A stretch of DNA of 32,000 nt, taken from Candidatus Methanoperedens sp. (GTDB lineage Archaea > Halobacteriota > Methanosarcinia > Methanosarcinales > Methanoperedenaceae). Of the stretch, positions 2,727-27,298 are shown piece by piece. Below the pieces are notes generated by a model, which was given only the letters and a program-made list of their open reading frames with translations, had not been told where the DNA came from and made no database searches. Each line of letters begins with the position of its first letter. Position 1 is the stretch's first letter. Location: positions 416,501 through 448,500 of the forward strand of contig JBGQBI010000002.1 of the NCBI GenBank assembly GCA_041494705.1, written 5' to 3'. A program made the translations under genes and the position numbers.

Positions 2727-3078
2727 TTTTTTAAACTGAAAGCTTGATAAACCGTCCCGAAGGGCTGTTCTCGCGGGTAGGCGCACATTCGCTTTTGCGT
2801 GCTCCCTTTAGGGCGGGGGCGCAATCGTCAGGATTGATTTTGATGGCTCTGTCTTGGCGCATATACAATAATTGACCGTTGATATTGAAGGATTGATTTT
2901 TATGAGATTAGTGTAAAGTTACAATGGTTTTTAGCTCTTAAATAATGGACATATTTATTAAATAATATTAAACAAATTTCTTTGTTAATGCCATGAATAG
3001 CTTTCTCATTCAATAAATTTAAATATTATTAATGTTAATGAAAACTCGTGGCTAACTTGAGATTGTAGAGGTTGAAAC

Positions 3079-3609
3079 ATGAGTTTAATAACTCAATTGA
3101 CGAATTCAGATATACCAATTGTCATTATCCTATTAGGTGCTCTTTTCCTTTATTTTGGATTTATTATAGGGAATACAAAAGTTTGGAAATCTGATAAAAT
3201 CGAATCTTATATAGAAGGTTTATTTTTCTTTGTTTTTTACATTTTTATTCCTTTTATTGCTTGTTTTTATCTCAGAGGTCAATTAAATGTTTGGTCTTTC
3301 TTATTAAATCCTATCTATATTCAAGTCGTTGTCTTACTTCAAGTCGCTGTCTTGTTATTTCAATTTGTTATCTTCAGCTTTCTTTCAACGGTCTTACAGG
3401 CACAGAGAATTAGAAGATATGAATTCGTTGATACAGGTAGAAATCAATTTGAAAAAATGATTAATGATTTTCCATTCATTGGGAGAATTATCAGAAGAAA
3501 TGAGAATTTGTATGATAAAGTTGAAACATTTTTTGAATTGTTTATCTACAAAATTCCGATTAAAATGGGGAATCGATACATACTTTTCATTTCTGACAAT
3601 CCTATTTAA
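3079..3609 (+). CDS. hypothetical multi-pass membrane protein (low-GC islet)
   Basis: 176-aa ORF with GAGGT 8 nt upstream of the ATG and several hydrophobic segments (IVIILLGALFLYFGFII, LFFFVFYIFIPFIACFY, VVVLLQVAVLLFQFVIFSFL). I recognise no family. Confidence 0.5.
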   Translation: MSLITQLTNSDIPIVIILLGALFLYFGFIIGNTKVWKSDKIESYIEGLFFFVFYIFIPFIACFYLRGQLNVWSFLLNPIYIQVVVLLQVAVLLFQFVIFSFLSTVLQAQRIRRYEFVDTGRNQFEKMINDFPFIGRIIRRNENLYDKVETFFELFIYKIPIKMGNRYILFISDNPI

Positions 3610-4183
3610 TTTCATATTATATGATTCACCAACTACCTTAGCATACGTCTCAGGAGAGCTATTGATTTTTGGATTCTCTCTGGTATTAAGTTTTTTTATA
3701 TTAACTTATGTGGCATCAGCGTATGGTTATAGTGATGTTGGTTATCGTTTCGTGAAAGTTTACTTGGTTGATAGTGAACCTATTCGGGGAAAAATGATGT
3801 ATTATGGAGAACTTGTTATCATACTAAAAAATGGGTATTTGTTTAGCTGGGACAGCATTCCAGAAAGCGGCAACGATGGGCTCATAGAATTTCTAAATCG
3901 ATATTTTGGTATTGAGTGGGTAAGAACGGCAAACATTGAAAAAAGCGATAATGGTAGAACCATAAAGTTATCTACTGAAAATAATTCTCTTTCGCTAATG
4001 CTTAACAATGAAAACACCAAGGTAAATCTAAAAATCGATGACGGTAGAAATGATGAATTTATGGTGAAGACAGAAAAAAGTAAGCTGAACATATACGAAA
4101 ATAAACGGATTTTGATAAATAAAGATAAAATCAATTATATTGAAGATAGTTTTTTTGAAACCGAAAAAGATAAAAATCTATAA
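3464..4183 (+). CDS. hypothetical membrane protein with soluble C-terminal domain; start uncertain, possibly a +1 frame continuation of 3079..3609
   Basis: 239-aa ORF overlapping the preceding ORF by 146 nt in another frame. TM segments (YFSFLTILFNFIL, LLIFGFSLVLSFFILTYV) are followed by a Lys/Asn/Glu-rich soluble part. No in-frame ATG lies between 3512 and about 3793. Confidence 0.4.
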   Translation: MIFHSLGELSEEMRICMIKLKHFLNCLSTKFRLKWGIDTYFSFLTILFNFILYDSPTTLAYVSGELLIFGFSLVLSFFILTYVASAYGYSDVGYRFVKVYLVDSEPIRGKMMYYGELVIILKNGYLFSWDSIPESGNDGLIEFLNRYFGIEWVRTANIEKSDNGRTIKLSTENNSLSLMLNNENTKVNLKIDDGRNDEFMVKTEKSKLNIYENKRILINKDKINYIEDSFFETEKDKNL

Positions 4184-4240
4184 GTTGATTTATTTAGTAA
4201 ATAGTTTTATAATTATTATTTGGTTCGATGATTTTCTTAT

Positions 4241-4972
4241 TTAATACGTCAATAATGCCTTCATTTTTGATATTACTTCATTCAAATCATTGGTTCTTTG
4301 TTCGACTATTGTGGCTTGGGTTTTGACTTGACCAGAAAGTGTAGCTTTTTTTATAATATTTGCTTGATTATATTGTGATATTAAGTTATTATATTGTGTT
4401 ACTGCATCATTATATTTAGATAACTGGTCATTATATTGTGTTAAAAGTTGTAGATATTCTTTAAATTGTTTGGGAGTATAAAAATTCCATCCTCTATAAT
4501 AACGTGGATTATCCGTGGAGTAAACTAAATATCCTCCTGTTGTTTCTAAAGCTAACCATTTATCGGCGGATACTTCTGCTAAAACCCATGCATGATTAGA
4601 TTCAAATAGCGTTGCATTATCTTTATCAACATTACCAATTTGAATTTTTGCATTAATTCCTCTAGTTTTTAACATATTCCAGACATCATTAGCCATATCC
4701 CCACATACAAAAATATCCTTTCCGTAATAAGTATGAGTTTGATGGTATTCCTCAACAACTTCCTTGCTAATTTGAATGTTCATCTCTTCTAATGTAGGTG
4801 TATGAGTTGGAGTTATTTGTGTAGGAATAGGAGTTAGTGTTGTAGTAGGCTCCGGTACTGTTTGCCTGTTTCCCGACAAGGACTTTATGGTAGTGTCGTT
4901 ACCTAAACAACCTGAAACAATAATTGCTAATCCAAAGATTGCTATAAATATAATCGATTTAAATTGTACCAT
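4241..4972 (-). CDS. secreted lipoprotein with transglutaminase-like cysteine peptidase core and C-terminal YN-heptad coiled coil
   Basis: Signal peptide plus lipobox (IIVSGC) and a Thr/Pro linker (PEPTTTLTPIPTQITPTHTPT). Candidate Cys-His-acid triad context: FVCGDMANDVW, NHAWVLAEV, WLALETT. The C-terminus has four YNxxxxx heptads. Confidence 0.6.
   Translation of the reverse strand: MVQFKSIIFIAIFGLAIIVSGCLGNDTTIKSLSGNRQTVPEPTTTLTPIPTQITPTHTPTLEEMNIQISKEVVEEYHQTHTYYGKDIFVCGDMANDVWNMLKTRGINAKIQIGNVDKDNATLFESNHAWVLAEVSADKWLALETTGGYLVYSTDNPRYYRGWNFYTPKQFKEYLQLLTQYNDQLSKYNDAVTQYNNLISQYNQANIIKKATLSGQVKTQATIVEQRTNDLNEVISKMKALLTY
4368..4451. repeat. 4 x 21-bp tandem repeat (TTATATTGTG core at 4368, 4389, 4410, 4431)
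   Basis: Exact 21-nt spacing of the TTATATTGTG/TTATATTTAG cores. On the minus strand it encodes the heptads YNDQLSK-YNDAVTQ-YNNLISQ-YNQANII of the lipoprotein. Confidence 0.8.
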
Positions 4973-5046
4973 AAATTTTAAAATGATTTTATTCCTAAAT
5001 AAAACTATTGTATCTTGGAATAAGTACGTTTACAATTTCCTATGCG

Positions 5047-10877: not shown

Positions 10878-11093
10878 GGGGCTGTGGCCTAGTCCGGCAT
10901 GGCGACGGGCTCCAGCGGAAAACCCCGGAATCCGGGGTGTGATGATGAGCAACGGGTCTGCCGAGCGAACCGGACGCGGTAAGCTGTGAGGAACCGTTGG
11001 AGCACTGAACGTGCTGCTCAAAGATTAAATCGCCAAAAACCTGGCGTTTTCGGAGAGACCCGTCGATCGTGAGTTCAAATCTCACCAGCCCCA
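10878..11093 (+). tRNA. tRNA-Trp (anticodon CCA at 10912-10914) interrupted by a 142-nt intron (10916-11057)
   Basis: Exons fold into a cloverleaf. Acceptor GGGGCTG/CAGCCCC, anticodon stem ACGGG/CCCGT, T arm GTGAG-TTCAAAT-CTCAC, discriminator A. There is a canonical bulge-helix-bulge: 3-nt bulge AG|C, central helix CUCC(10910-10913)/GGAG(11052-11055), 3-nt bulge AG|A. The outer helix is GGAAA/UUUUC. Both predicted cuts fall at position 37/38. Confidence 0.9.
10916..11057 (+). ncRNA. intron-encoded box C/D guide RNA predicted to direct 2'-O-methylation of C34 and C39 of tRNA-Trp
   Basis: C box GTGATGA (10939-10945, or ATGATGA 10942-10948). Guide ACGGGTCTG (10952-10960) lies before a degenerate D' box CCGA (10961-10964). 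C'-like box TGTGAGGA (10985-10992). Guide CCGTTGGAGC (10994-11003) lies before D box CTGA (11005-11008). By the N+5 rule the guides pair with positions 39 and 34 of this same tRNA. Confidence 0.75.
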
Positions 11094-11524
11094 TTTCCCA
11101 CAAAACCAGGATAAAGTATATATATCATTATGTTTATGACAGTGATTCGACGAGCGGGAACATTTTTTTACTAACCCCCACTCCCCAACCCGCTCGTCAT
11201 TCTTTTTACAATGTTTTTTGTGATTATCATCGCCTATCTGGCGATTGTTTTTATGCGAATTGCGTGAGGAACCAAAAAAAAGATTGACGGATAGGATAGT
11301 GGTGGTTACCTTGGTTCCTCTAACCCTAAATTAAACCAGATAAATAAAGCAATTTTCCAATATTATACCCTAATTTATGCCGGATTTAACCTTTAACTTC
11401 AGGTTGCATCGAATTGGATGTAAACGGCTCTGTTTCTACCTGTAATGCTTCTTTCGACTGAACCTACCACAGATAGCGTCAGAAGTCTATATTTATACCT
11501 ATTGACATGAATTAAAGAGATTTT

Positions 11525-11610
11525 ATGAAAAAACTTTATGAAAGTTTTATCAAAAGAAGGGGTATGCGCAGCATACCCCTATACCGCATAAAGCGAGGTG
11601 TCGCTTTATG
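11525..11610 (+). repeat. mosaic hairpin element, copy A (modules H7-H2-H1) forming the argH leader
   Basis: H7 is AAAACTTT-atg-AAAGTTTT (11530-11548). H2 is GGGGTATGC-gca-GCATACCCC (11559-11579). H1 is CATAAAGCGA-ggtg-TCGCTTTATG (11587-11610), whose last three bases are the argH ATG. The same modules recur at 19250-19447 and 20327-20403, and H7 also at 27166-27298. Confidence 0.85.
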
Positions 11611-13086
11611 AATATACTAAGGCGAGGTCGTCTCCAGGTCAAACAGGATGAAGACATAATGCGGTTCACATCGTCAATGGAAGCGGACAAACGGATATTC
11701 GACGCTGATATTGACGTGGATAAAGCCCACGTTGTCATGTTAAAAGAGCAGGGCATCATAAAGGAAAGCGAATGCTCAACCATCCTCTCAGGTCTTGAAA
11801 AGATTCAAAAGGAAGGAATTTCCGCTCTTGATGCCTCGTATGAAGATGTCCACATAGCCCTTGAGGCCCGGCTTATTGAACTTGTGGGCGAGGATACGGG
11901 AGGGCGCATGCATTCCGGGCGTTCGCGCAACGATGAGGTCGCAACATGCATACGCATCGCGCTGCGCACGGAACTTGCATTCCTTCTGGAGGAAGTTCAT
12001 ACACTTGCCGCAACGCTTGTCAAAACAGCAGAAGAACATCGTGAAACCATTATGCCCGGATACACCCACACCCAGCACGCCCAGCCAACCACGCTGGCCC
12101 ATCACCTGCTGGCGCATGCAAACGCGCTTTCGCGCGACATTGAAAGGATAAAAGCGGCTTTTGGTCACACGAACCAGAACCCTCTTGGTGCTGCCGCATT
12201 TGCTTCAACCGGCTTTCCCATAAACAGGGAAAGGACAACGGAACTCCTCGGGTTTGACTCTGCACTTTCGAATTCCATGGATGCCGTAAGTACCCGCGAT
12301 TTTATGATAGAAAGCTTAAGCTCCTTCTCCAATTTGATGACGGACTTAAGCCGCATGGCTGAAGAATTTGTCCTCTGGAGTTCATCCGAATTCGGTTTTA
12401 TCGAGCTTGATGACAGGTATTCATCCACATCGTCCATAATGCCGCAAAAGAAGAATCCCGATATTGCGGAACTTTTGCGCGCAAAGACGGGAACGGTTCA
12501 CGGCGCCCTCATGTCTGTTTTAACTATCTGCAAGGCGCTTCCGTACAGCTACAACCGCGACCTCCAGGAGGCAACGCCTCACCTCTGGCGCGCCGCCGAT
12601 ACAGTTCGAGCTTCTACGCGTATGGCAGAGGGCATGGTCAGTACAATGAAAATCAAAAAGGAAACGATGAAGCTTGCATCAAACACAGGATTCATGACTG
12701 CAACAGAGCTTGCAGATACTATTGTCCGGGCAACAGGCATCCCTTTTCGGACTGCGCATCATATCGTGGGCTCAATCGCAAAGACAGGAAAAAACCCCAC
12801 TCTTTCCCTGCTGGATGAAATTTCATTAAAGATCCTTGGGGAAAAATTAAGCGACATGGGACTTTCTGAAAAAGCCGTTAAAGAAGCTCTTGACCCTCTG
12901 GTAAACATAAGAAAACGTACAGTCTCCGGAGGACCTGCTCCCAAAGAGATAAAGCGACAGATAGCCGTAATCAAGAAAAAACTTGCTGGAAGCGAGAACG
13001 ATATTAAAGTTATTAATAACAAGATTAATAAAGCAAAAGAAAAACTTGCCCTGGTTTGCGAGCAACAATTTAAGAAAACGATATGA
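11608..13086 (+). CDS. argH: argininosuccinate lyase
   Basis: 492 aa with GRMHSGRSRNDEVATCIR, the fumarate-lyase signature SSIMPQKKNPD and YNRDLQE. Confidence 0.95.
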   Translation: MNILRRGRLQVKQDEDIMRFTSSMEADKRIFDADIDVDKAHVVMLKEQGIIKESECSTILSGLEKIQKEGISALDASYEDVHIALEARLIELVGEDTGGRMHSGRSRNDEVATCIRIALRTELAFLLEEVHTLAATLVKTAEEHRETIMPGYTHTQHAQPTTLAHHLLAHANALSRDIERIKAAFGHTNQNPLGAAAFASTGFPINRERTTELLGFDSALSNSMDAVSTRDFMIESLSSFSNLMTDLSRMAEEFVLWSSSEFGFIELDDRYSSTSSIMPQKKNPDIAELLRAKTGTVHGALMSVLTICKALPYSYNRDLQEATPHLWRAADTVRASTRMAEGMVSTMKIKKETMKLASNTGFMTATELADTIVRATGIPFRTAHHIVGSIAKTGKNPTLSLLDEISLKILGEKLSDMGLSEKAVKEALDPLVNIRKRTVSGGPAPKEIKRQIAVIKKKLAGSENDIKVINNKINKAKEKLALVCEQQFKKTI

Positions 13087-14198
13087 GCGAAGAAAAACCG
13101 GTATACCTGCCAGAAGAAAAAAAAGAGGAAACTATAGTTCCTCCACCCAAGTCCAATGGTAATTGCGCTTTCTGTGTCGCACTTCCGGTAGCCGGAGGAA
13201 AACCATTAAAATTAACCGGTGACAACCCGCATGATTTTTTACAATTCCTTACAGAATCATCAGTAGCCTGGTTAAACTTCCCGGTAAAAGACATAAAGAA
13301 AGACGCAGATATAATCGCAATGTCTCTCGGGTTCAGTTCCACCCTTGTACCCACTCTTTTCTCCGGTTATCATTCGGCATATGAAGACAGGGACACCGAA
13401 ATGGGACTGATGCTTCCTGCAGTAAATGTGAAGAAGTTTGATGTTCTCATCAGCCCGATATTGATTTTGATAAGAAAAGACCTGATCCTGACCATACATG
13501 AAGAGAACGTCAACCGTTTGATAAGACTATCCAGATATGCAGATGCCTTCATGAGAAAAATCAAACCTACCCTGATAAATGAGGACAAATTAACAATCAT
13601 CCTGACAAGAATAATAGATGAGAATATTAACAGGAATTTTGATCATCTGCGCGAGATAGAGGCGCAGGGAGACGATTTGAGCAAGATTCTGACCGATACG
13701 ACGACTCCCAGGGGACTGATCGGTCCTGAAATTTATAACATGAAACATGCCCTTATAAGCTATATGGATACGCTGTGGGCTACCCTTGATGTAGTAAATT
13801 CACTAAGGCATGGCGATGCCGAACTAATAAGCGACAGCCCTAAATTACTTGCCCGTCTTGGCATACTCTCTGATGACGTCAACAGGCATATTGCACTCAG
13901 CGAGCACATGTCGGATGTTTTGGCTTCGGGACTTGAAGTGCTCCAGAGCATCTACAACAACCAGCTCCAGGTTTTAAATAACAGGCTTGCCCTTGTCATG
14001 ACGTGGCTTACCATACTCGGAACAGCCGTGTTAGTACCAAACACGCTTGCTACGGTTTTCAGCAATCCTGCCTTCAGTATGGGACCTCAGGATAAAACAT
14101 GGTATTCCCTGCTCCTTATTTTTTCCACGATATTTGCGACATGGGCTGCTTACTGGTGGATAAAAAAGAAAGGATTGATGCCCTTAAAAGTGGACTGA
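13083..14198 (+). CDS. CorA-like divalent cation transporter family protein with non-canonical pore motif
   Basis: 371 aa with a CorA-like soluble N-domain and two C-terminal TM helices (WLTILGTAVLVPNTLATVF, WYSLLLIFSTIFATWAAYWWI). Where YGMNF is expected the sequence is FSNPAF. Its ATG overlaps the argH stop (ATGA). Confidence 0.6.
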   Translation: MSEEKPVYLPEEKKEETIVPPPKSNGNCAFCVALPVAGGKPLKLTGDNPHDFLQFLTESSVAWLNFPVKDIKKDADIIAMSLGFSSTLVPTLFSGYHSAYEDRDTEMGLMLPAVNVKKFDVLISPILILIRKDLILTIHEENVNRLIRLSRYADAFMRKIKPTLINEDKLTIILTRIIDENINRNFDHLREIEAQGDDLSKILTDTTTPRGLIGPEIYNMKHALISYMDTLWATLDVVNSLRHGDAELISDSPKLLARLGILSDDVNRHIALSEHMSDVLASGLEVLQSIYNNQLQVLNNRLALVMTWLTILGTAVLVPNTLATVFSNPAFSMGPQDKTWYSLLLIFSTIFATWAAYWWIKKKGLMPLKVD

Positions 14199-18448: not shown

Positions 18449-19252
18449 TTAATCCTTTTGGTGAATCCCCAGCACATCAGCCATCTCATATACGCCAGGC
18501 TTTGCCGAACAAATCCAGATAGCCGCTCTCACAGCCCCTTTTGCGAAAGCCTGCCTGCTATGCGCCTGGTGCTTGATTTCGATGCGCTCACCGTCGCCTG
18601 CGAATAATACCGTATGGTCGCCCACAATATCGCCGCCGCGTACTGCATGTATCCCGATTTCCTGCTTTCGGGGTGAAAGACCATGCCTGCCGTATACAAG
18701 CTCTTTCCCTCCGAGCGTCTTTGAAATAACTTCCGCTGCTTTCACGGCTGTACCGCTTGGCGCATCCTTTTTCTGGTTATGGTGGGCTTCTATTATTTCG
18801 ATATCATAATCTGAAAGGCTCTTTGCAGCCTCGGCAAGAAGACCCCAGAAGACATTTACACCAATTGAGAAGTTGGGTGAAATAACCGCCGCAACTCCAT
18901 TTTCTTTGATTGCCTTTTCCATGAGCGATTTCTGTTCAGGGGTGAAACCCGTAGTCCCGACAACCAGATTGACCTTCTTACCTGCGCTTGCAATTACGTT
19001 CTTCACGGCTGCATTAGCTATTGTAAAATCAATAAGCACATCGGGTTTTGACCTGTCAAGGGCTGCATCGATTTTATCTGCATCCTCGATCTGGACATTT
19101 AGTTTGCCTGTCCTCATCACTTCGCCAATGTCTTTTCCAATATTAGTTACATCCAGGGCGCATACAAGTTTCAAATCCTTTGATTTCAGGATATTTTCGA
19201 TAATAAGCCCGCCCATTCTCCCGCAGGCGCCGGTGACCGCTATTTTTATCAT
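18449..19252 (-). CDS. dapB: 4-hydroxy-tetrahydrodipicolinate reductase
   Basis: 267 aa with MIKIAVTGACGRMG, GTTGF and IIEAHHNQKKDAPSGTA. Confidence 0.95.
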   Translation of the reverse strand: MIKIAVTGACGRMGGLIIENILKSKDLKLVCALDVTNIGKDIGEVMRTGKLNVQIEDADKIDAALDRSKPDVLIDFTIANAAVKNVIASAGKKVNLVVGTTGFTPEQKSLMEKAIKENGVAAVISPNFSIGVNVFWGLLAEAAKSLSDYDIEIIEAHHNQKKDAPSGTAVKAAEVISKTLGGKELVYGRHGLSPRKQEIGIHAVRGGDIVGDHTVLFAGDGERIEIKHQAHSRQAFAKGAVRAAIWICSAKPGVYEMADVLGIHQKD

Positions 19253-19447
19253 AAAGGGTTACGCCCCTTTAGGACATCCCGAGTCACGCCTCGGGAGGGC
19301 GTGTCCGGGTATGGCGCGCCATACCCGTCGTTTGAAAAGCGACACCTCGCTTTATGCGGTATCCACGTATGCCTGTGGGCATACGTGTCTGCGAAGTAAA
19401 GCGGCGCAACGGTTTTTGATAAAACTTTTCCAAAGTTTTTCATAAGC
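19250..19447 (-). repeat. mosaic hairpin element, copy B (H7-H5-H1-H2-H4-H3 read on the minus strand) filling the entire dapA-dapB spacer
   Basis: H3 is TAAAGGG/CCCTTTA (19252-19271). H4 is TCCCGAG/CTCGGGA (19277-19296). H2 is the 22-nt perfect palindrome CGGGTATGGCGCGCCATACCCG (19306-19327). H1 is AAAGCGA-cacc-TCGCTTT (19336-19353). H5 is CACGTATGCC-tgtg-GGCATACGTG (19364-19387). H7 is AAAACTTT-tcc-AAAGTTTT (19421-19439). The dapB ATG (19252-19250) lies next to the H3 stem. Confidence 0.85.
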
Positions 19448-19450
19448 AAC

Positions 19451-20326
19451 TCACTTTATCAGATGAAGGTTATCCAATGCGGCTTTTAGCTTTCTTTCGT
19501 TATCTTCGCTTATTGAGGCAAGCGGAAGCCGCAGGTGCCCGGCCGGGAATCCGATAAGCTCGACCGCCTTTTTGATGGGAATAGGATTGGTCTCCAGAAA
19601 TACCGCGCGAATAAGAGGAGCCAGGGCAAGATGCAGTCTTCGTGCTTCATCCAAATCTCCTCTTTGGAACGCTTCGACCATGGAAACCGTGAGCTTCGGG
19701 GCGACATTAGCGACAACAGAAATTACACCAGCGCCGCCCAGCGCCATTATGGGAAGCGTCAGGCCGTCATCGCCAGACAGGATAACAAAATCCTCATCCT
19801 GCGTCATCTCGATAATACGTGTAACCTGGTCAAGATTGCCGCTTGCTTCTTTTATCCCAACTATATTGCTTTCTTTTGCCAATTCAGCGACAATTTCAGG
19901 CTTGAGATTGATACCTGTCCGCGAAGGGACGTTATACATTATCATGGGTATGTCAACCTCGTTTGCAATCTTCTTGAAATGAGCAAGCATCCCGCGGTCA
20001 TTGGGTTTGTTATAATAAGGAGTTATTAAAAGAGCCGCATCCGCTCCTGCATCTTTTGCGAATCTTGTAAGCTCTATTGCCTCTGTCGTATTATTCGAGC
20101 CCGTGCCTGCTACGACAGGAACAGTCGAACACTCAACAGCAATTTCAATGACATGTTCATGTTCCTCGATAGAAAGGGTTGCCGATTCCCCGGTAGTCCC
20201 GCATGGAACGATGCCTGAAACGCCGTTTTCAATTAAAAATCCGATATTCTGCTTAAAGCCCTGTTTATCTATCTTATTATCCTTTGTGAAAGGAGTTATA
20301 AGGGCAGGCAGAACACCTTCAATCAT
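19451..20326 (-). CDS. dapA: 4-hydroxy-tetrahydrodipicolinate synthase
   Basis: MIEGVLPALITPF..GTTGESATLS..YNVPSRTG. The track ORF is extended 22 codons upstream from a TTG at 20392 through the repeat element. I prefer the ATG at 20326. Confidence 0.95.
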   Translation of the reverse strand: MIEGVLPALITPFTKDNKIDKQGFKQNIGFLIENGVSGIVPCGTTGESATLSIEEHEHVIEIAVECSTVPVVAGTGSNNTTEAIELTRFAKDAGADAALLITPYYNKPNDRGMLAHFKKIANEVDIPMIMYNVPSRTGINLKPEIVAELAKESNIVGIKEASGNLDQVTRIIEMTQDEDFVILSGDDGLTLPIMALGGAGVISVVANVAPKLTVSMVEAFQRGDLDEARRLHLALAPLIRAVFLETNPIPIKKAVELIGFPAGHLRLPLASISEDNERKLKAALDNLHLIK

Positions 20327-20403
20327 AAAGCGATACCTCACTTTATGCGGTCTGGGGTATGCTTCGCATACCCCTCGTTTGATACTTTCCAAAGTATTCC
20401 ATA
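20327..20403 (-). repeat. mosaic hairpin element, copy D (H7'-H2-H1) filling the rps17e-dapA spacer
   Basis: Plus-strand coordinates. H1 is CATAAAGCGA-tacc-TCACTTTATG (20324-20347) and includes the dapA start codon. H2 is GGGGTATGC-ttc-GCATACCCC (20354-20374). H7' is ATACTTT-cc-AAAGTAT (20382-20397). Confidence 0.85.
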
Positions 20404-21564: not shown

Positions 21565-22026
21565 ATGATAATAAACTTCCAGCTTACCAACGTGGAATCC
21601 AAGGCATATACCACGACCGAGGATGTGCGGAAATACAAGAACATCAATATCAATTATGACGTGAATCTTAAAAACCCCTCGATTGTAGTGCAGCATACGC
21701 CTCTTGGTGAAAAATCGGTGCTGAGGGTGGAGTACACTTTTGCCATCAATTACCTGAGCCCGAATATCGGTCACATAAGGTTTGAGGGTTTGTCCGATTA
21801 TTACAGCGAGGAAGACCTGAAAGCCCTGAAGGAGAAATGGGATTCTGGGAATGCGCCGGGCGATGTGCAGAACGAGATTGCAAATACCATGGTGGCGAAT
21901 CTTGCGCCGCTGGCATTGATGCTTTCAAAAGCGCTCGGGCTTCCGCCTTCGATGCCTGTTCCTGTGATTAATTTCCAGCAGGCTCAGCAGAAGAAAAAGG
22001 AAGAGCCGACGTATTATCACGGGTAG
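21565..22026 (+). CDS. hypothetical protein (weak SecB-like resemblance)
   Basis: 153-aa ORF. The beta-rich N-half and the C-terminus ...NLAPLALMLSKALGLPPSMPVPVINFQ loosely recall SecB-family chaperones. This is from memory only. Confidence 0.4.
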   Translation: MIINFQLTNVESKAYTTTEDVRKYKNININYDVNLKNPSIVVQHTPLGEKSVLRVEYTFAINYLSPNIGHIRFEGLSDYYSEEDLKALKEKWDSGNAPGDVQNEIANTMVANLAPLALMLSKALGLPPSMPVPVINFQQAQQKKKEEPTYYHG

Positions 22027-22332
22027 GGCAGCGTCTATTTTTTAGTATAGGCTTTTCTGGAGGATGGATTGGTTACAATCCGGTTCCAATCTTAAAATAG
22101 CACTCAAAAATCAACATATAATTATAATTTTTGTTTATACAATGATAGATGATTTTTTCGATTGATTACCTCTACCTATTTTTATATTTTTATATTAGAT
22201 TTCAATAATTAAAAACGATAGCAGTAAAAATTTATAGTAAGTTTTAAATACTATATGGTATTATATGACAATAATATTTCACAGGAGGAAATATTAGTAT
22301 CTATCGATTTATCTGAAAAGGGTGAAAATATT

Positions 22333-22770
22333 ATGAAAAAGGGAATATTTGTACTATCGATGATTTTAGTGGCTGTATTGATTGCTGGTTGCGTAGGAAA
22401 AGGTCCTGTAAGTCTTGATTTAGACAAAACAAGTGTGACCGTCAATAAGAATAATAACAACACTTCTGAACTTATTACAGCAACAATAACCAGAAATGAC
22501 AATGATAATAGAGATGCCAGTTTTGTATTAAAGTTTCCAGATGAAAAGAATAGTGTTTATCCAGTTGATAGTAGTAACGGTAGTAGAATAAAAGAATTAC
22601 GAACCAGATCACTAAAAGGGGAAAATTCAAAAGATATCCGACAATTTAAGATATACGGTAATAAAGGTGAGGCAGATAAATCAGATTTCAATTTAAAAAT
22701 TGAACTTTGGTGGGATAATAATACAAAAATAGCTGACCAGGACAAAATACTTACAATTACAGTCGAGTAA
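22333..22770 (+). CDS. small secreted lipoprotein, low-GC islet
   Basis: Internal ATG at 22333 preceded by GGTGA. Signal plus lipobox MKKGIFVLSMILVAVLIAGC. The mature part is Asn/Asp/Lys-rich. Confidence 0.55.
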   Translation: MKKGIFVLSMILVAVLIAGCVGKGPVSLDLDKTSVTVNKNNNNTSELITATITRNDNDNRDASFVLKFPDEKNSVYPVDSSNGSRIKELRTRSLKGENSKDIRQFKIYGNKGEADKSDFNLKIELWWDNNTKIADQDKILTITVE

Positions 22771-22877
22771 TCCTTGCCCTTGCCAATGAGCAGGGTTTGG
22801 ATTTCTCCCCTTTGTTTTAAGGATTTTCTTTAAAAAAAATACTGTAACGCTTCAAATCGTGTTTAAATCTGTTTCCA

Positions 22878-23120
22878 TTATTTTCCCGAAAAGACTTTGA
22901 GTCCAACTTTTCCTAAATATGCAACAAGCCCCAAGATAAACAATATTACACCAATAATTATTCTGGTTTCATTGACCTCTGAAACACCTGTAGCCGTTAT
23001 TGGGCCTGCTGTAAGCGTCGCCAACGCCAAACCCGACATGGGAAGAGCTGACAGGATTGCTGCGACACCGGCTATCATTACAATCATCCCGAATATTTTT
23101 AGTGGGTCTCTCTTTGTCAT
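22878..23120 (-). CDS. small two-TM membrane protein
   Basis: About 80 aa with two hydrophobic helices (IFGMIVMIAGVAAILSAL, IIIGVILFILGLVAYL). The track start is a TTG and the ATG is at 23120. Confidence 0.4.
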   Translation of the reverse strand: MTKRDPLKIFGMIVMIAGVAAILSALPMSGLALATLTAGPITATGVSEVNETRIIIGVILFILGLVAYLGKVGLKVFSGK

Positions 23121-26132: not shown

Positions 26133-27047
26133 CTACTTGCTTCGGCTTATTATATACTCACCCAATTCTTTGAGTTTTGTTTTTGCATAGGTTTCATCGA
26201 GGTCTTCAATATGGTTTTTTGCAAGCTCTATCTCTTCTCTTGCGGTTTTTTGCGCAAATTCAATGGAATTCGCGACAAGATGCATGAGTTCCCCGTTATT
26301 GCATTTCATCATCATCTCAATTGAAATGCCTGAATTAATGGCATCAAGCAGTACAATGGAAGGTCTCCCCATAAAAAGGTCTTTTTTCACAGGTTTACCA
26401 AGGTCTTCCTCTCTTGAAATGCAATCAAGGATGTCATCGCGGATCTGGAAAGCAAGACCGATATGGTTCCCGAACTTTGTAAGGTCATTTATCTGTTTTT
26501 TATCTCCACCGCCAACGAGAGCCCCTACCTCGGCCGCTGAACTGAAAAGCGAACCGGTTTTCCTGAAAGCAAGCTCAAGATAACTCTTCTTATCTTTGGC
26601 AAAATCAACAAGTTCCATGGCTTCGCCCTCGCCCATACAGAACAATGAATCGGCGATGGCATGGATGAGTCTCGGGTCGCGCGCCGCGATTTTGAGTGAA
26701 AGGGCTGCAAGGATTTGCACTGTCAGGAGAGCCATGTCATTGCCCCACAGCGTATGAATCGTGAACTGTCCGCGCCTTTTCTCGGATTTATCGATTACAT
26801 CGTCCAGTACGAGAGATGAGGAATGTATTAATTCGATAGAAGCGGCTGCAAAACATGCTTCTTTTGCAGTACCGCCCACAGCCTCGCATGCGAGCGTGAC
26901 AAGCGCGGGCCTGATGCGTTTTCCCTTTGAAGCTATTGCATAGGCGACCGCGGCGGCAAGCTCAGGCGGTTTGATATCAGTGAGAAGGTTTGGCAGTTCA
27001 GAATCCACCAAGCTTGCGCGCTCGGCTAAAAGTTGCTCTATATCCAT
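26133..27047 (-). CDS. trans-polyprenyl diphosphate synthase (GGPP/GFPP synthase-like)
   Basis: First Asp-rich motif LVLDDVIDKSEKRRG and second Asp-rich motif FQIRDDILD. Its stop is 8 nt from the radical SAM start. Confidence 0.85.
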   Translation of the reverse strand: MDIEQLLAERASLVDSELPNLLTDIKPPELAAAVAYAIASKGKRIRPALVTLACEAVGGTAKEACFAAASIELIHSSSLVLDDVIDKSEKRRGQFTIHTLWGNDMALLTVQILAALSLKIAARDPRLIHAIADSLFCMGEGEAMELVDFAKDKKSYLELAFRKTGSLFSSAAEVGALVGGGDKKQINDLTKFGNHIGLAFQIRDDILDCISREEDLGKPVKKDLFMGRPSIVLLDAINSGISIEMMMKCNNGELMHLVANSIEFAQKTAREEIELAKNHIEDLDETYAKTKLKELGEYIISRSK

Positions 27048-27165
27048 TGCCTACACCCATGAATGAAATACTTGAAAAGTGTTTCTATTTAAACGCATAA
27101 TCCTTCACAACATGAACTAATCATAGATAGATTTTATCTTTTATGTTCATTTCGGGAAAATCATT

Positions 27166-27298
27166 CATAAAGGGTTACGCCCCTTTATGACGTCCCGAGT
27201 CACGTCTCGGGAGGGTATCCACGTATGCCTGTGGGCATACGTGTCTGCGAAGTAAAGCGGCGCAACGGTTTTTGATAAAACTTTCTTAAAGTTTTTCA
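27166..27298 (-). repeat. mosaic hairpin element, copy C (H7-H5-H4-H3), immediately after the dapL stop
   Basis: Near-identical to copy B, but it lacks the 60-nt H1+H2 cassette (19300-19359 in B). H3 here is the perfect CATAAAGGG-ttacgc-CCCTTTATG (27166-27189). H7 is AAAACTTT-ctt-AAAGTTTT (27277-27295) and abuts the dapL stop codon (27296-27298). Confidence 0.85.

Follow-up and report, generated by a model that had tools for sequence, protein, structure and literature searches.

A hairpin repeat with a phased reading frame at the start codons of argH and other genes of Candidatus Methanoperedens

The argH leader

We analyzed a 32,000-nucleotide stretch of DNA from the archaeon Candidatus Methanoperedens sp. 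(GenBank assembly GCA_041494705.1, contig JBGQBI010000002.1, positions 416,501 to 448,500 of the forward strand; hereafter the window, numbered from its first letter), with a focus on the region directly 5' of argH. This gene (11608-13086, plus strand) encodes an argininosuccinate lyase of 492 amino acids with the Pfam domains Lyase_1 and ASL_C2. The protein is 96% identical to one encoded by a Methanoperedens metagenome-assembled genome (MAG), and the exact protein occurs in assembly GCA_041489935.1. The argH leader consists of three hairpins traversed by a short upstream open reading frame (uORF) that ends on the argH start codon. This arrangement is one copy of a repeat found at the start codons of unrelated genes, and its uORF probably carries ribosomes across the repeat to the gene. 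For the argH leader itself the outcome is mainly negative, in that the leader does not serve to regulate argH by arginine.

All parts of the leader lie on the plus strand. A TATA-like box, CTATATTTATAC (11487-11498), is located ~27 nt 5' of the upstream ATG, and its spacing is identical at two orthologous loci (L118 and L119) and at a third that is devoid of the repeat (L120). The box would act as the argH promoter, placing the transcription start site at about 11518-11522. Its conservation is consistent with the proposal, made in an initial annotation of this DNA from the sequence alone, that the hairpins are part of a 5' leader. Comparison with L120 identifies the ATG at 11525-11527 as the ancestral argH start, which now opens the uORF. 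It is embedded in the octamer TTTATGAA (11522-11529), which is single in L120 and double in the window, where the downstream copy (11605-11612) provides the working argH start codon. The uORF (11525-11611) encodes the peptide MKKLYESFIKRRGMRSIPLYRIKRGVAL in 28 codons, among them 5 for Arg, including one AGA-AGG pair, and 4 for Lys. Its stop codon TGA (11609-11611) overlaps the argH ATG (11608-11610) as ATGA.

The first hairpin, module A (AAAACTTT-atg-AAAGTTTT, 11530-11548, -5.8 kcal/mol), is followed by ATCAAAA and is the first module in nearly all Methanoperedens copies among the matches listed. The middle hairpin (AGGGGTATGC-gca-GCATACCCCT, 11558-11580, -17.2 kcal/mol) encodes RGMRSIP. The terminal hairpin (CATAAAGCGA-ggtg-TCGCTTTATG, 11587-11610, -13.4 kcal/mol) contains the argH ATG as its final 3 bases. 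The loop of this hairpin and the last two bases of its 5' arm form the motif GAGGTG (11595-11600), 7 nt before the argH ATG. The 3' end of archaeal 16S rRNA reads ...CACCUCC, making GAGGTG a good Shine-Dalgarno (SD) sequence. The three hairpins, the 28-codon uORF, the ATGA overlap and the position of the argH ATG within a hairpin were thus located correctly in the initial annotation, as was the origin of RGMRSIP in the middle palindrome. The leader matched no family of Rfam 15 at the gathering threshold, and no match with E <= 1 was obtained for 11400-11700.

A native ATGA overlap is present at the other end of the gene, where the argH stop coincides with the start of a corA-like gene (13083-14198) at 13083-13086; the repeat imitates this -4 nt architecture. 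The long intergenic region 5' of the argH promoter contains the C/D-box sRNA sR3 (RF01133) at 10938-11010 on the plus strand (Rfam score 50 bits; gathering threshold 41).

Filled and empty sites

Orthologous loci (L118-L121) were reached via ArgH homologues. Four positions yielded ortholog pairs with and without the element: argH, rps17e-dapA, dapA-dapB and nitroreductase-tusA. In all four pairs, ATGA (up to the full octamer TTTATGAA) is single at the empty site and stands on both sides of the element at the filled site. The ATGA at the element ends is often extended, to TTATGA or TTTATGAA.

At argH, the empty site of L120 reads TCTATATTTATACCCAATGACATGAATTAAAGATTGTTT-ATGAA-TATATTAAGG, with the octamer in the context ...AAAGATTGTTTATGAATATATTAAGG. 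In the window, the same promoter is followed by TTTATGAA, 75 nt, a second TTTATGAA and TATACTAAGG, an 83-nt copy. Between dapA and dapB, L118 and L121 are empty (TGAgtttttATGATAAAAAT), and the window is filled, with TGAgttgcttATGA preceding the element (AAAACTTT...CCCTTTATGA) and TAAAAAT following it. The same two loci are empty between rps17e and dapA (TAAttATGATTGAAGG), where the window has a copy of 76 nt from ATG to ATG. The situation is reversed between the nitroreductase gene and tusA: the window, L118 and L119 are empty (GATTAAATGAGCG), and L120 is filled. Presence of the element therefore differs between close relatives.

The argH site is filled in six genomes, with 83 nt (window, L104 and L028), 143 nt (L119), 158 nt (L121) or 296 nt (L118). 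The variable content of the array at one position suggests that arrays gain and lose modules rapidly while their location remains fixed. In filled sites the upstream copy of the start codon retains the native initiation context of the gene. For argH this context lacks an SD at both filled and empty sites; many other genes have a good SD there. We regard it as nearly certain that the feature is a dispersed insertion element at start codons. One further candidate, the TACGA...TACGA flanks of L013 as a covarying duplication, was dropped: the array at this locus runs 320 nt further, to a normal gene-start hairpin.

Distribution of the element

Each hairpin pattern of the argH leader recurs in the window, compared with ~0-0.04 matches expected by chance. 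Together with the occurrence of the family in Methanoperedens, this confirms the earlier suggestion that the hairpins are repeat-derived. The window holds four copies, before argH, dapA and dapB and after the stop codon of an aminotransferase gene, with the same module order and the same orientation to the downstream gene. The element is a composite: it opens with a 5' hairpin and its tail, (ATGA)AAAACTTTnnnAAAGTTTTATCAAAA, continues with GC-richer hairpin modules in varying number (GGGTATGC.., ACGTATGCC.., CCCGAG..) and closes with a terminal hairpin, CATAAAGnGnnGTnnCnCTTTATGA. In the window this terminal module finishes on the start codons of argH, dapA and dapB, and dozens of genes in other sequences have it in the same position. 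The arrays comprise 2-9 hairpins with stems of 8-12 bp and are mosaics of modules of ~24-33 nt.

The other three copies in the window are on the minus strand. The second (19249-19443) lies between the dapA stop and the dapB start; it measures 191 nt from ATG to ATG and contains a 64-codon uORF that ends as ATGA on the dapB ATG (19252-19250). The third, which is partly decayed (20324-20402), lies between the rps17e stop and dapA, with its 5' ATG at 20402. The true dapA start is at 20326-20324, giving a protein of 291 amino acids; the longest ORF at this position extends 5' to a TTG within the element. The fourth copy (27165-27295) is situated directly 3' of the aminotransferase TGA (27298-27296) and not at a gene start.

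Two scans were performed beyond the window. GTDB representative genomes were scanned with the 5' hairpin pattern, with counts referring to the matches listed, and metagenomes were scanned with the terminal (3') hairpin pattern alone. The latter scan gave 35 loci, 3 of which were cut by a contig end, leaving 32 evaluable. The first scan revealed more than 30 further copies in Methanoperedens MAGs, and nearly all matches of the 5' hairpin with a loop of 3 (loop-3) fell in such MAGs. About 24 of the 32 evaluable metagenome loci had, by our tally, the full architecture with the uORF open from the upstream ATG. The sequence just 5' of the listed copies is almost always ...ATGA(A), often after a good SD (aataggaggaactATGAA, aaaggtggtttaaATGAA, ggaaggagggaggaagaagaATGAA); SD-like motifs (GGAGG, AGGTGAT, GGGTGAT and similar) precede the upstream ATG by 5-10 nt in most copies examined. 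At the 3' end, ...CTTTATGA, the ATG opens a long ORF.

The genes downstream of the copies are unrelated to one another and form no coherent regulon. From their N-terminal sequences alone, we take those of the first scan to include genes for ribosomal L19e-like, MetAP, CobS and TrpD-like proteins, and those of the second scan to be L5-, L19e-, MobB-, geranylgeranyl-reductase- and polyprenyl-synthase-like. Pfam matches at orthologues identify others as a ParA/CbiA-family ATPase and TusA. In ~118 kb of sequence that had not been chosen for the repeat (the window and the flanks of L118-L121), arrays occur at a density of ~1 per 10-20 kb, and 5 of the 6 arrays besides that of argH end on a gene start. 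The terminal hairpin pattern had 0 matches in IMG/VR, and a blastn search with the 206-nt dapB copy gave no match in plasmid or phage collections. The searchable literature contained no description of these Methanoperedens repeats; the papers on tandem repeats in Borgs address a different phenomenon.

A codon-phased reading frame

Among the listed matches to the 5' hairpin seeds, 20 copies are at gene starts and have an upstream ATG. In 17 of these the two ATGs are separated by a distance of 2 mod 3, and no stop interrupts the uORF (27-99 codons) before the overlapping TGA. Two others, which are in phase 0, meet a TAA within the loop GCGTAAC and so close 6 nt ahead of the gene ATG. Over 19 elements, the uORF frame had 2 stop codons per 910 codons; the two remaining forward frames had 55 and 31, and the three reverse frames had 65, 34 and 24.

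The phase is kept in 34 distinct elements, with lengths of 80, 83, 104, 107, 110, 140, 143, 155, 158, 185, 191, 236, 239 and 296 nt. It is also kept at orthologous sites despite differing modules, namely 83/143/158/296 at argH and 80/107/164, 80/155 and 104/80 at other genes. By our reading, the modules measure 24, 27, 30 or 33 nt, all multiples of three, and encode for example MKNFRKVLSK, TVAPLYFAD, TYGFAIRGY, EGYASHTLY, TPSRGVTRD and, ending in the stop codon, RIKRGVAL. In the 83-nt subfamily, which includes the argH copy, the frame is shifted by one additional A in the 5' hairpin and restored by two added bases in the following stem (GGGG/CCCC versus GGG/CCC). Its first loop has the sequence ATG or ACG; after the shift, the loops AGG, AAG and GAG that are usual elsewhere would yield the stops TAG, TAA and TGA. 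A 6-A copy with an AGG loop exists (L056) and is not at a gene start. At the level of the family, the modules are solidly established as codon-phased, stop-free and closed by ATGA. Ongoing selection on each single copy is less certain.

Two tandem elements are found 5' of the dapA orthologue on a metagenome contig (L146), forming what would be a two-step relay: the ATGA that closes the first uORF starts the second, which ends on the dapA ATG.

RNA folding

The leader RNA (11522-11640) has a minimum free energy (MFE) of -41.4 kcal/mol, compared to -23.3 +/- 3.4 kcal/mol for shuffled sequences (z = -5.3), and none of 200 shuffles was as good. The MFE and centroid structures both consist of three independent local hairpins, and neither contains mutually exclusive alternative structures. 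The terminal stem, a perfect 10 bp in the argH copy, pairs the AUG and two bases of the SD; its predicted stability is -11 to -13 kcal/mol. In the middle hairpin the stem is invariant and the loop varies between copies. The same pattern of variable loops and constant stems was seen in the 13 short copies compared.

Comparison with known systems

The closest functional analogue appears to be the mycobacterial interspersed repetitive unit (MIRU). MIRUs have been characterized as mobile units that insert at start codons, with filled and empty sites and tetranucleotide direct repeats, and with an internal ORF that is coupled to the gene at -4 nt (PMC12548453, citing Supply et al. 1997; PMC3184786). 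Their insertion is read as having little effect on expression thanks to translational coupling (PMC12548453, PMC3184786). The Methanoperedens element resembles MIRUs in being a short dispersed unit (~40-100 bp for MIRU) in operon junctions with filled and empty orthologous sites. It further shares the tetranucleotide direct repeats at the ends (here ATGA) and an internal ORF that is co-oriented with the flanking genes and overlaps the gene start by 4 nt; the ORF ends of MIRUs overlap both the stop and the start codons of their neighbours. However, the host is archaeal and the likeness is to the description of MIRUs rather than to their sequence. Moreover, the arrays are mosaics of differing near-perfect hairpin modules instead of tandem copies of one unit, the last module contains an SD and buries the start codon within its stem, and many copies are at promoter-proximal, possibly leaderless starts, beyond operon interiors. 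We therefore describe the element as an archaeal hairpin-modular element that would work like a MIRU, without filing it as a member of that family.

The REP/BIME/REPIN repeats of Proteobacteria are similar in that palindromes of 20-40 nt form mosaic intergenic arrays in high copy number, with conserved stems and variable loops, and break short-read assemblies. REP palindromes have a conserved adjacent GTAG or CGTC tag (PMC3733652), and inspection of the module sequences revealed no such tag beside the Methanoperedens hairpins. REP sequences are untranslated and follow stop codons, typically 3' of genes, whereas most Methanoperedens copies abut start codons, and the element combines an SD and an ATG with a reading frame that is maintained. 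No RAYT (Y1 transposase) turned up in the genome fragments examined, in which no transposase search was made. The REP2 repeat of Neisseria, which has been compared with Borrelia IR repeats, likewise supplies a ribosome-binding site as well as an ATG (PMC3184786). In contrast to the present element, REP2 also carries a promoter and marks a set of co-regulated genes, and it is without a uORF ending in an ATGA overlap (PMC3184786).

MITEs and the palindrome-associated elements (PATEs) derived from IS200/IS605 are likewise small, non-autonomous insertions. Like the present element, they have short direct repeats and hairpins at their two ends, and their filled and empty sites are precise. Features seen here that fit a MITE are the ATGA duplication, the length of 80-296 nt and a nonsense peptide as the sole ORF. 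Terminal inverted repeats are absent: inverting the 5' end (AAAACTTTAGG...) does not give the 3' end (...GGTGTCGCTTT). PATEs have subterminal hairpins at both ends and insert 3' of a fixed target of 4-5 nt, which they do not duplicate. In the Methanoperedens element hairpins are present at both ends, and the ATGA on the left and the ATGA that forms the last bases on the right fit either a duplication or a target combined with an element-borne cleavage site. An IS200/IS605-like single-strand mechanism, with a fixed left target, hairpins at both ends and precise excision, is compatible with the data.

Two modes of translational coupling are established, ATGA termination-reinitiation and RNA unfolding (PMC6728339; review PMC12548453). 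Termination-reinitiation at ATGA overlaps has been demonstrated experimentally in Haloferax volcanii, and 13 of 14 gene pairs were strictly coupled (9 from H. volcanii and 5 from E. coli; PMC6728339). The view of the initial annotation that no such mechanism is established in archaea accordingly needs to be qualified. ATGA-coupled gene pairs share with the element the -4 nt overlap, the location of an SD within the upstream ORF and an inhibitory structure over the downstream start, which the ribosome arriving from upstream opens and in the element would open (PMC6728339, PMC12548453). They differ from it in that the upstream ORF is a gene and not a non-functional peptide of a mobile repeat. 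Amino-acid leader-peptide attenuators and the fungal arginine attenuator peptide also place a short ORF 5' of a biosynthetic gene. In contrast to these, the Methanoperedens element is without a pathway association, alternative structures or a conserved regulatory peptide.

A proposed translational relay and its alternatives

The element is an insertion at the ATGA of a gene's start codon, and ATGA stands at both of its ends. We propose a relay in which ribosomes would begin at the upstream ATG using the native signals, read the element in its single stop-free frame, melting the hairpins en route, and terminate at the UGA of AUGA. They would then reinitiate on the overlapping gene AUG, or leave it exposed for fresh initiation, and the GAGGUG in the last loop would help. 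Without translation of the uORF, the SD and AUG of the gene would be locked in a hairpin of -11 to -13 kcal/mol. In the dapA-dapB operon, ribosomes would pass from dapA over a 7-nt gap to the 64-codon uORF and from there via ATGA to dapB. Given that the TATA box is ~27 nt before the upstream ATG and that there is no SD, the ancestral argH transcript probably had little or no leader, and in the window the uORF would inherit that start.

We favor the interpretation that the element is a selfish or neutral, MIRU-like mobile hairpin repeat with a built-in translational relay, which ties host expression to the original signals and has no link to arginine. That the uORF relay is used and matters also seems probable to us, with the transcription start site, uORF translation, coupling and mode of mobility being deduced from sequence. 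We are more tentative, and do not quite lean toward it, about a stronger version in which this is an active start-codon-colonizing hairpin family, an archaeal hairpin counterpart of MIRUs, with codon-phased modules, its own SD and ATGA and true targeting.

Several observations weigh against a translational relay at start codons. The SD in the terminal hairpin might permit direct initiation without it. The uORF of the dapA copy closes early, at a TAA that precedes the dapA ATG by 16 nt and belongs to the terminal hairpin's 5' arm, and copies at three loci (L034, L100 and L111) have no 5' ATG. The fourth copy in the window lies 120 nt before the start of a polyprenyl synthase gene (ATG at 27047), and the copies of L129, L130, L152 and L155 are likewise away from gene starts. 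By our reading of the sequences, there are some ten types of GC-rich module, and about half of these types are open in a second frame as well. Moreover, the copies are related and stop-freeness is in part inherited, so they do not constitute independent trials. Covariation was minimal, with 1 of 25 pairs compensatory in the 13 short copies, because these copies are young and too alike. G-U pairs were not enriched on the sense strand (19/1482) and were if anything more common on the antisense strand (53/1526), and mean fold energies were similar (-48.4 kcal/mol sense versus -48.7 kcal/mol antisense). With no sense bias in G-U pairs or MFE, this comparison gives no evidence of selection on the hairpins as RNA instead of as DNA palindromes, and the palindromes may serve mobility at the DNA level. 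The preference for start codons could result from selection after insertion at any ATGA, not from targeting. Finally, no transposase or other mobilizing enzyme turned up in the genome fragments examined, in which no search aimed at transposases was made.

An unused uORF in a passively inserted element would account for part of these findings. In this case initiation would be direct and SD-dependent at the terminal hairpin, through an exposed GAGGUG loop and a breathing stem, and the open frame would be an accident of a few founder modules. A good SD is present 7 nt from the ATG and partly in the loop, L034, L100 and L111 are at gene starts despite the missing 5' ATG, several of the GC-rich modules have, by our reading, more than one frame free of stops, and the copies are close kin. 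Nevertheless, we consider passive insertion unlikely, in view of the 2 versus 24-65 stops per 910 codons between frames, the module lengths in multiples of three, the phase held over architectures of 80-296 nt at one site, the mutually compensating indels and loop changes of the 83-nt subfamily, and a stem of -11 to -13 kcal/mol that pairs the AUG and two SD bases. A still less probable alternative is a role of the REP/BIME type at the RNA or DNA level, with the hairpins serving in operons as mRNA stabilizers, as processing or termination sites or as protein-binding sites, and translation being incidental. The mosaic arrays of short palindromes in intergenic operon positions do resemble BIMEs, the copy at 27165-27295 follows a stop codon and precedes a separate promoter, and the G-U pairs have no strand bias. 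However, such a role leaves the start-codon placement, the ATGA at both ends, the single stop-free frame and the conserved phase unexplained, and it could coexist with a relay.

Regulatory readings fare worse. In the arginine-responsive leader peptide suggested by the initial annotation, ribosome speed on the Arg codons would set the opening of the start-codon hairpin, and argH translation would follow arginine supply. The ATGA overlap and the occluding hairpin are real, and 5 Arg in 28 codons, with an AGA-AGG pair, do precede an arginine biosynthesis gene. However, the same or a near-identical peptide precedes dapB, a MobB-like gene (L140, MKKLYESLIKRQ...) and ribosomal-protein-, MetAP- and CobS-like genes (all but dapB named from their N-termini only). 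The Arg/Lys-rich sequence is a property of the family: copies with the common terminal module all end in RIKRGVAL followed by the stop, and the Arg codons are simply those encoded by the GC-rich palindromes (GGGGTATGC..., AAAGCGAGG). In addition, argH of L120 has the same promoter and no element, argH of other relatives carries versions of 143-296 nt with different peptides of 48-99 codons, and the folds contain no mutually exclusive alternative structures. The occurrence of this Arg/Lys-rich peptide before unrelated genes and the missing element at argH of one relative led us to reject arginine attenuation; we see next to no chance that it is correct. Thus, of the coupling or attenuation device that had been envisaged, the stop-free, ATGA-phased uORF in dozens of copies favors coupling, and attenuation falls. 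Global structural control is very improbable as well. In this reading the element would be a device such as a helicase-dependent leader or an RNA thermometer, whose SD/AUG hairpin would gate many genes as temperature or some other physical signal changes. The SD and AUG do recur in a moderately stable hairpin before many genes, but these genes form no coherent regulon and presence of the element differs between close relatives. A perfect 10-bp stem of -13 kcal/mol is also stronger than those of typical known thermometers.

Consequences for the host and for annotation

If the relay operates as proposed, it would provide a route for a selfish repeat to spread through a compact archaeal genome without silencing genes, by occupying start codons and borrowing termination-reinitiation. 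The family would then also represent a natural, replicated test bed for archaeal translational coupling and leaderless initiation, with uORFs of 27-99 codons and varied hairpin loads. Under the stronger version, that of an active start-codon-colonizing family, and extrapolating roughly from ~1 array per 10-20 kb, probably more than 100 genes per genome would be translated only by termination-reinitiation after a nonsense peptide.

The elements give rise to dozens of false 'hypothetical proteins' of 44-104 amino acids. The protein database contains 39 such entries (44-104 amino acids) that match the dapB uORF, and all those with a source name are from Methanoperedens. One uORF is annotated as a 99-amino acid 'gene' in L118 (9705-10004). 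The elements also mislead the calling of start codons, as exemplified by the longest dapA ORF, which begins at the TTG inside the element. Short-read assemblies break at or near the element: one contig (L002, 1-26) starts 25 nt before argH, and L001 (1-562) is a further case.

Related hairpin repeats and other features

The 5' hairpin was considered as the mark of a cross-domain family and rejected in this role. The pattern AAACTTT(N3-5)AAAGTTTTATCAAAA also occurs in MAGs of ANME-1, DPANN archaea and Clostridia and in very AT-rich viral contigs, giant-virus MAGs included, generally without a link to ATGA-coupled ORFs. Given this distribution across domains, the 5' hairpin alone was treated as non-diagnostic. 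A hairpin of A and T only, AAACTTTT..AAAAGTTTTATCAAAA, is present in many copies in the Clostridia MAG RGIG3994 (L003, L006, L007, L015, L023 and others) and in AT-rich viral contigs of IMG/VR (L157-L189), again including giant-virus MAGs. The viral A/T hairpins are sometimes in tandem, with units of ~29 and ~38 nt (L188; L168 and L170).

A version of the 5' hairpin with a loop of 5, followed by ...ATCAAAAACGCTTCGCAG, was found at L017, L022, L046, L047, L090 and ~30 other loci in MAGs of ANME-1/Methanophagales, Syntrophoarchaeum and other Methanosarcinales. The follow-on sequence resembles the Methanoperedens module ATCAAAAACCGTTGCGCCGCTTTACTTCGCAG, and the hairpins form intergenic arrays of several units rather than ATGA-coupled starts. 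These arrays may belong to a related hairpin-repeat superfamily in ANME archaea. Another subfamily, with a GGGCATGC middle and a GTAAACTGAGGTTTCAGTTTAT terminal hairpin (L031, L081, L107, L112 and L117), is always located between short repeats of the ATCCGTG type and has no ATGA ends. L107 contains two direct copies of it, 4.4 kb apart, and the subfamily possibly belongs to some larger unit that is repeated or mobile.

Among DPANN archaea, a Candidatus Iainarchaeum MAG (L042, 1-230) has an arrangement similar to that of MIRUs. Its 62-nt tandem unit consists of a AAAACTTTT/AAAAGTTTT hairpin, followed by an SD (AAGGTGG) and by 23 nt from the beginning of the gene, and the tandem units yield uORFs (MKKIYLDQKLLKKVLSKKVVQ, then the stop) that end as ATGA on the next start.

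Elsewhere in the window, two AT-rich islands (3001-5000 and 22001-23000) have a GC content of ~0.30, compared to ~0.45 in the remainder. The island ORFs (3079-3609, 3464-4183, 4241-4972 and 22255-22770) had no Pfam match and are possibly foreign DNA. A tRNA-Arg(TCG) gene is located at 2652-2727 on the plus strand.

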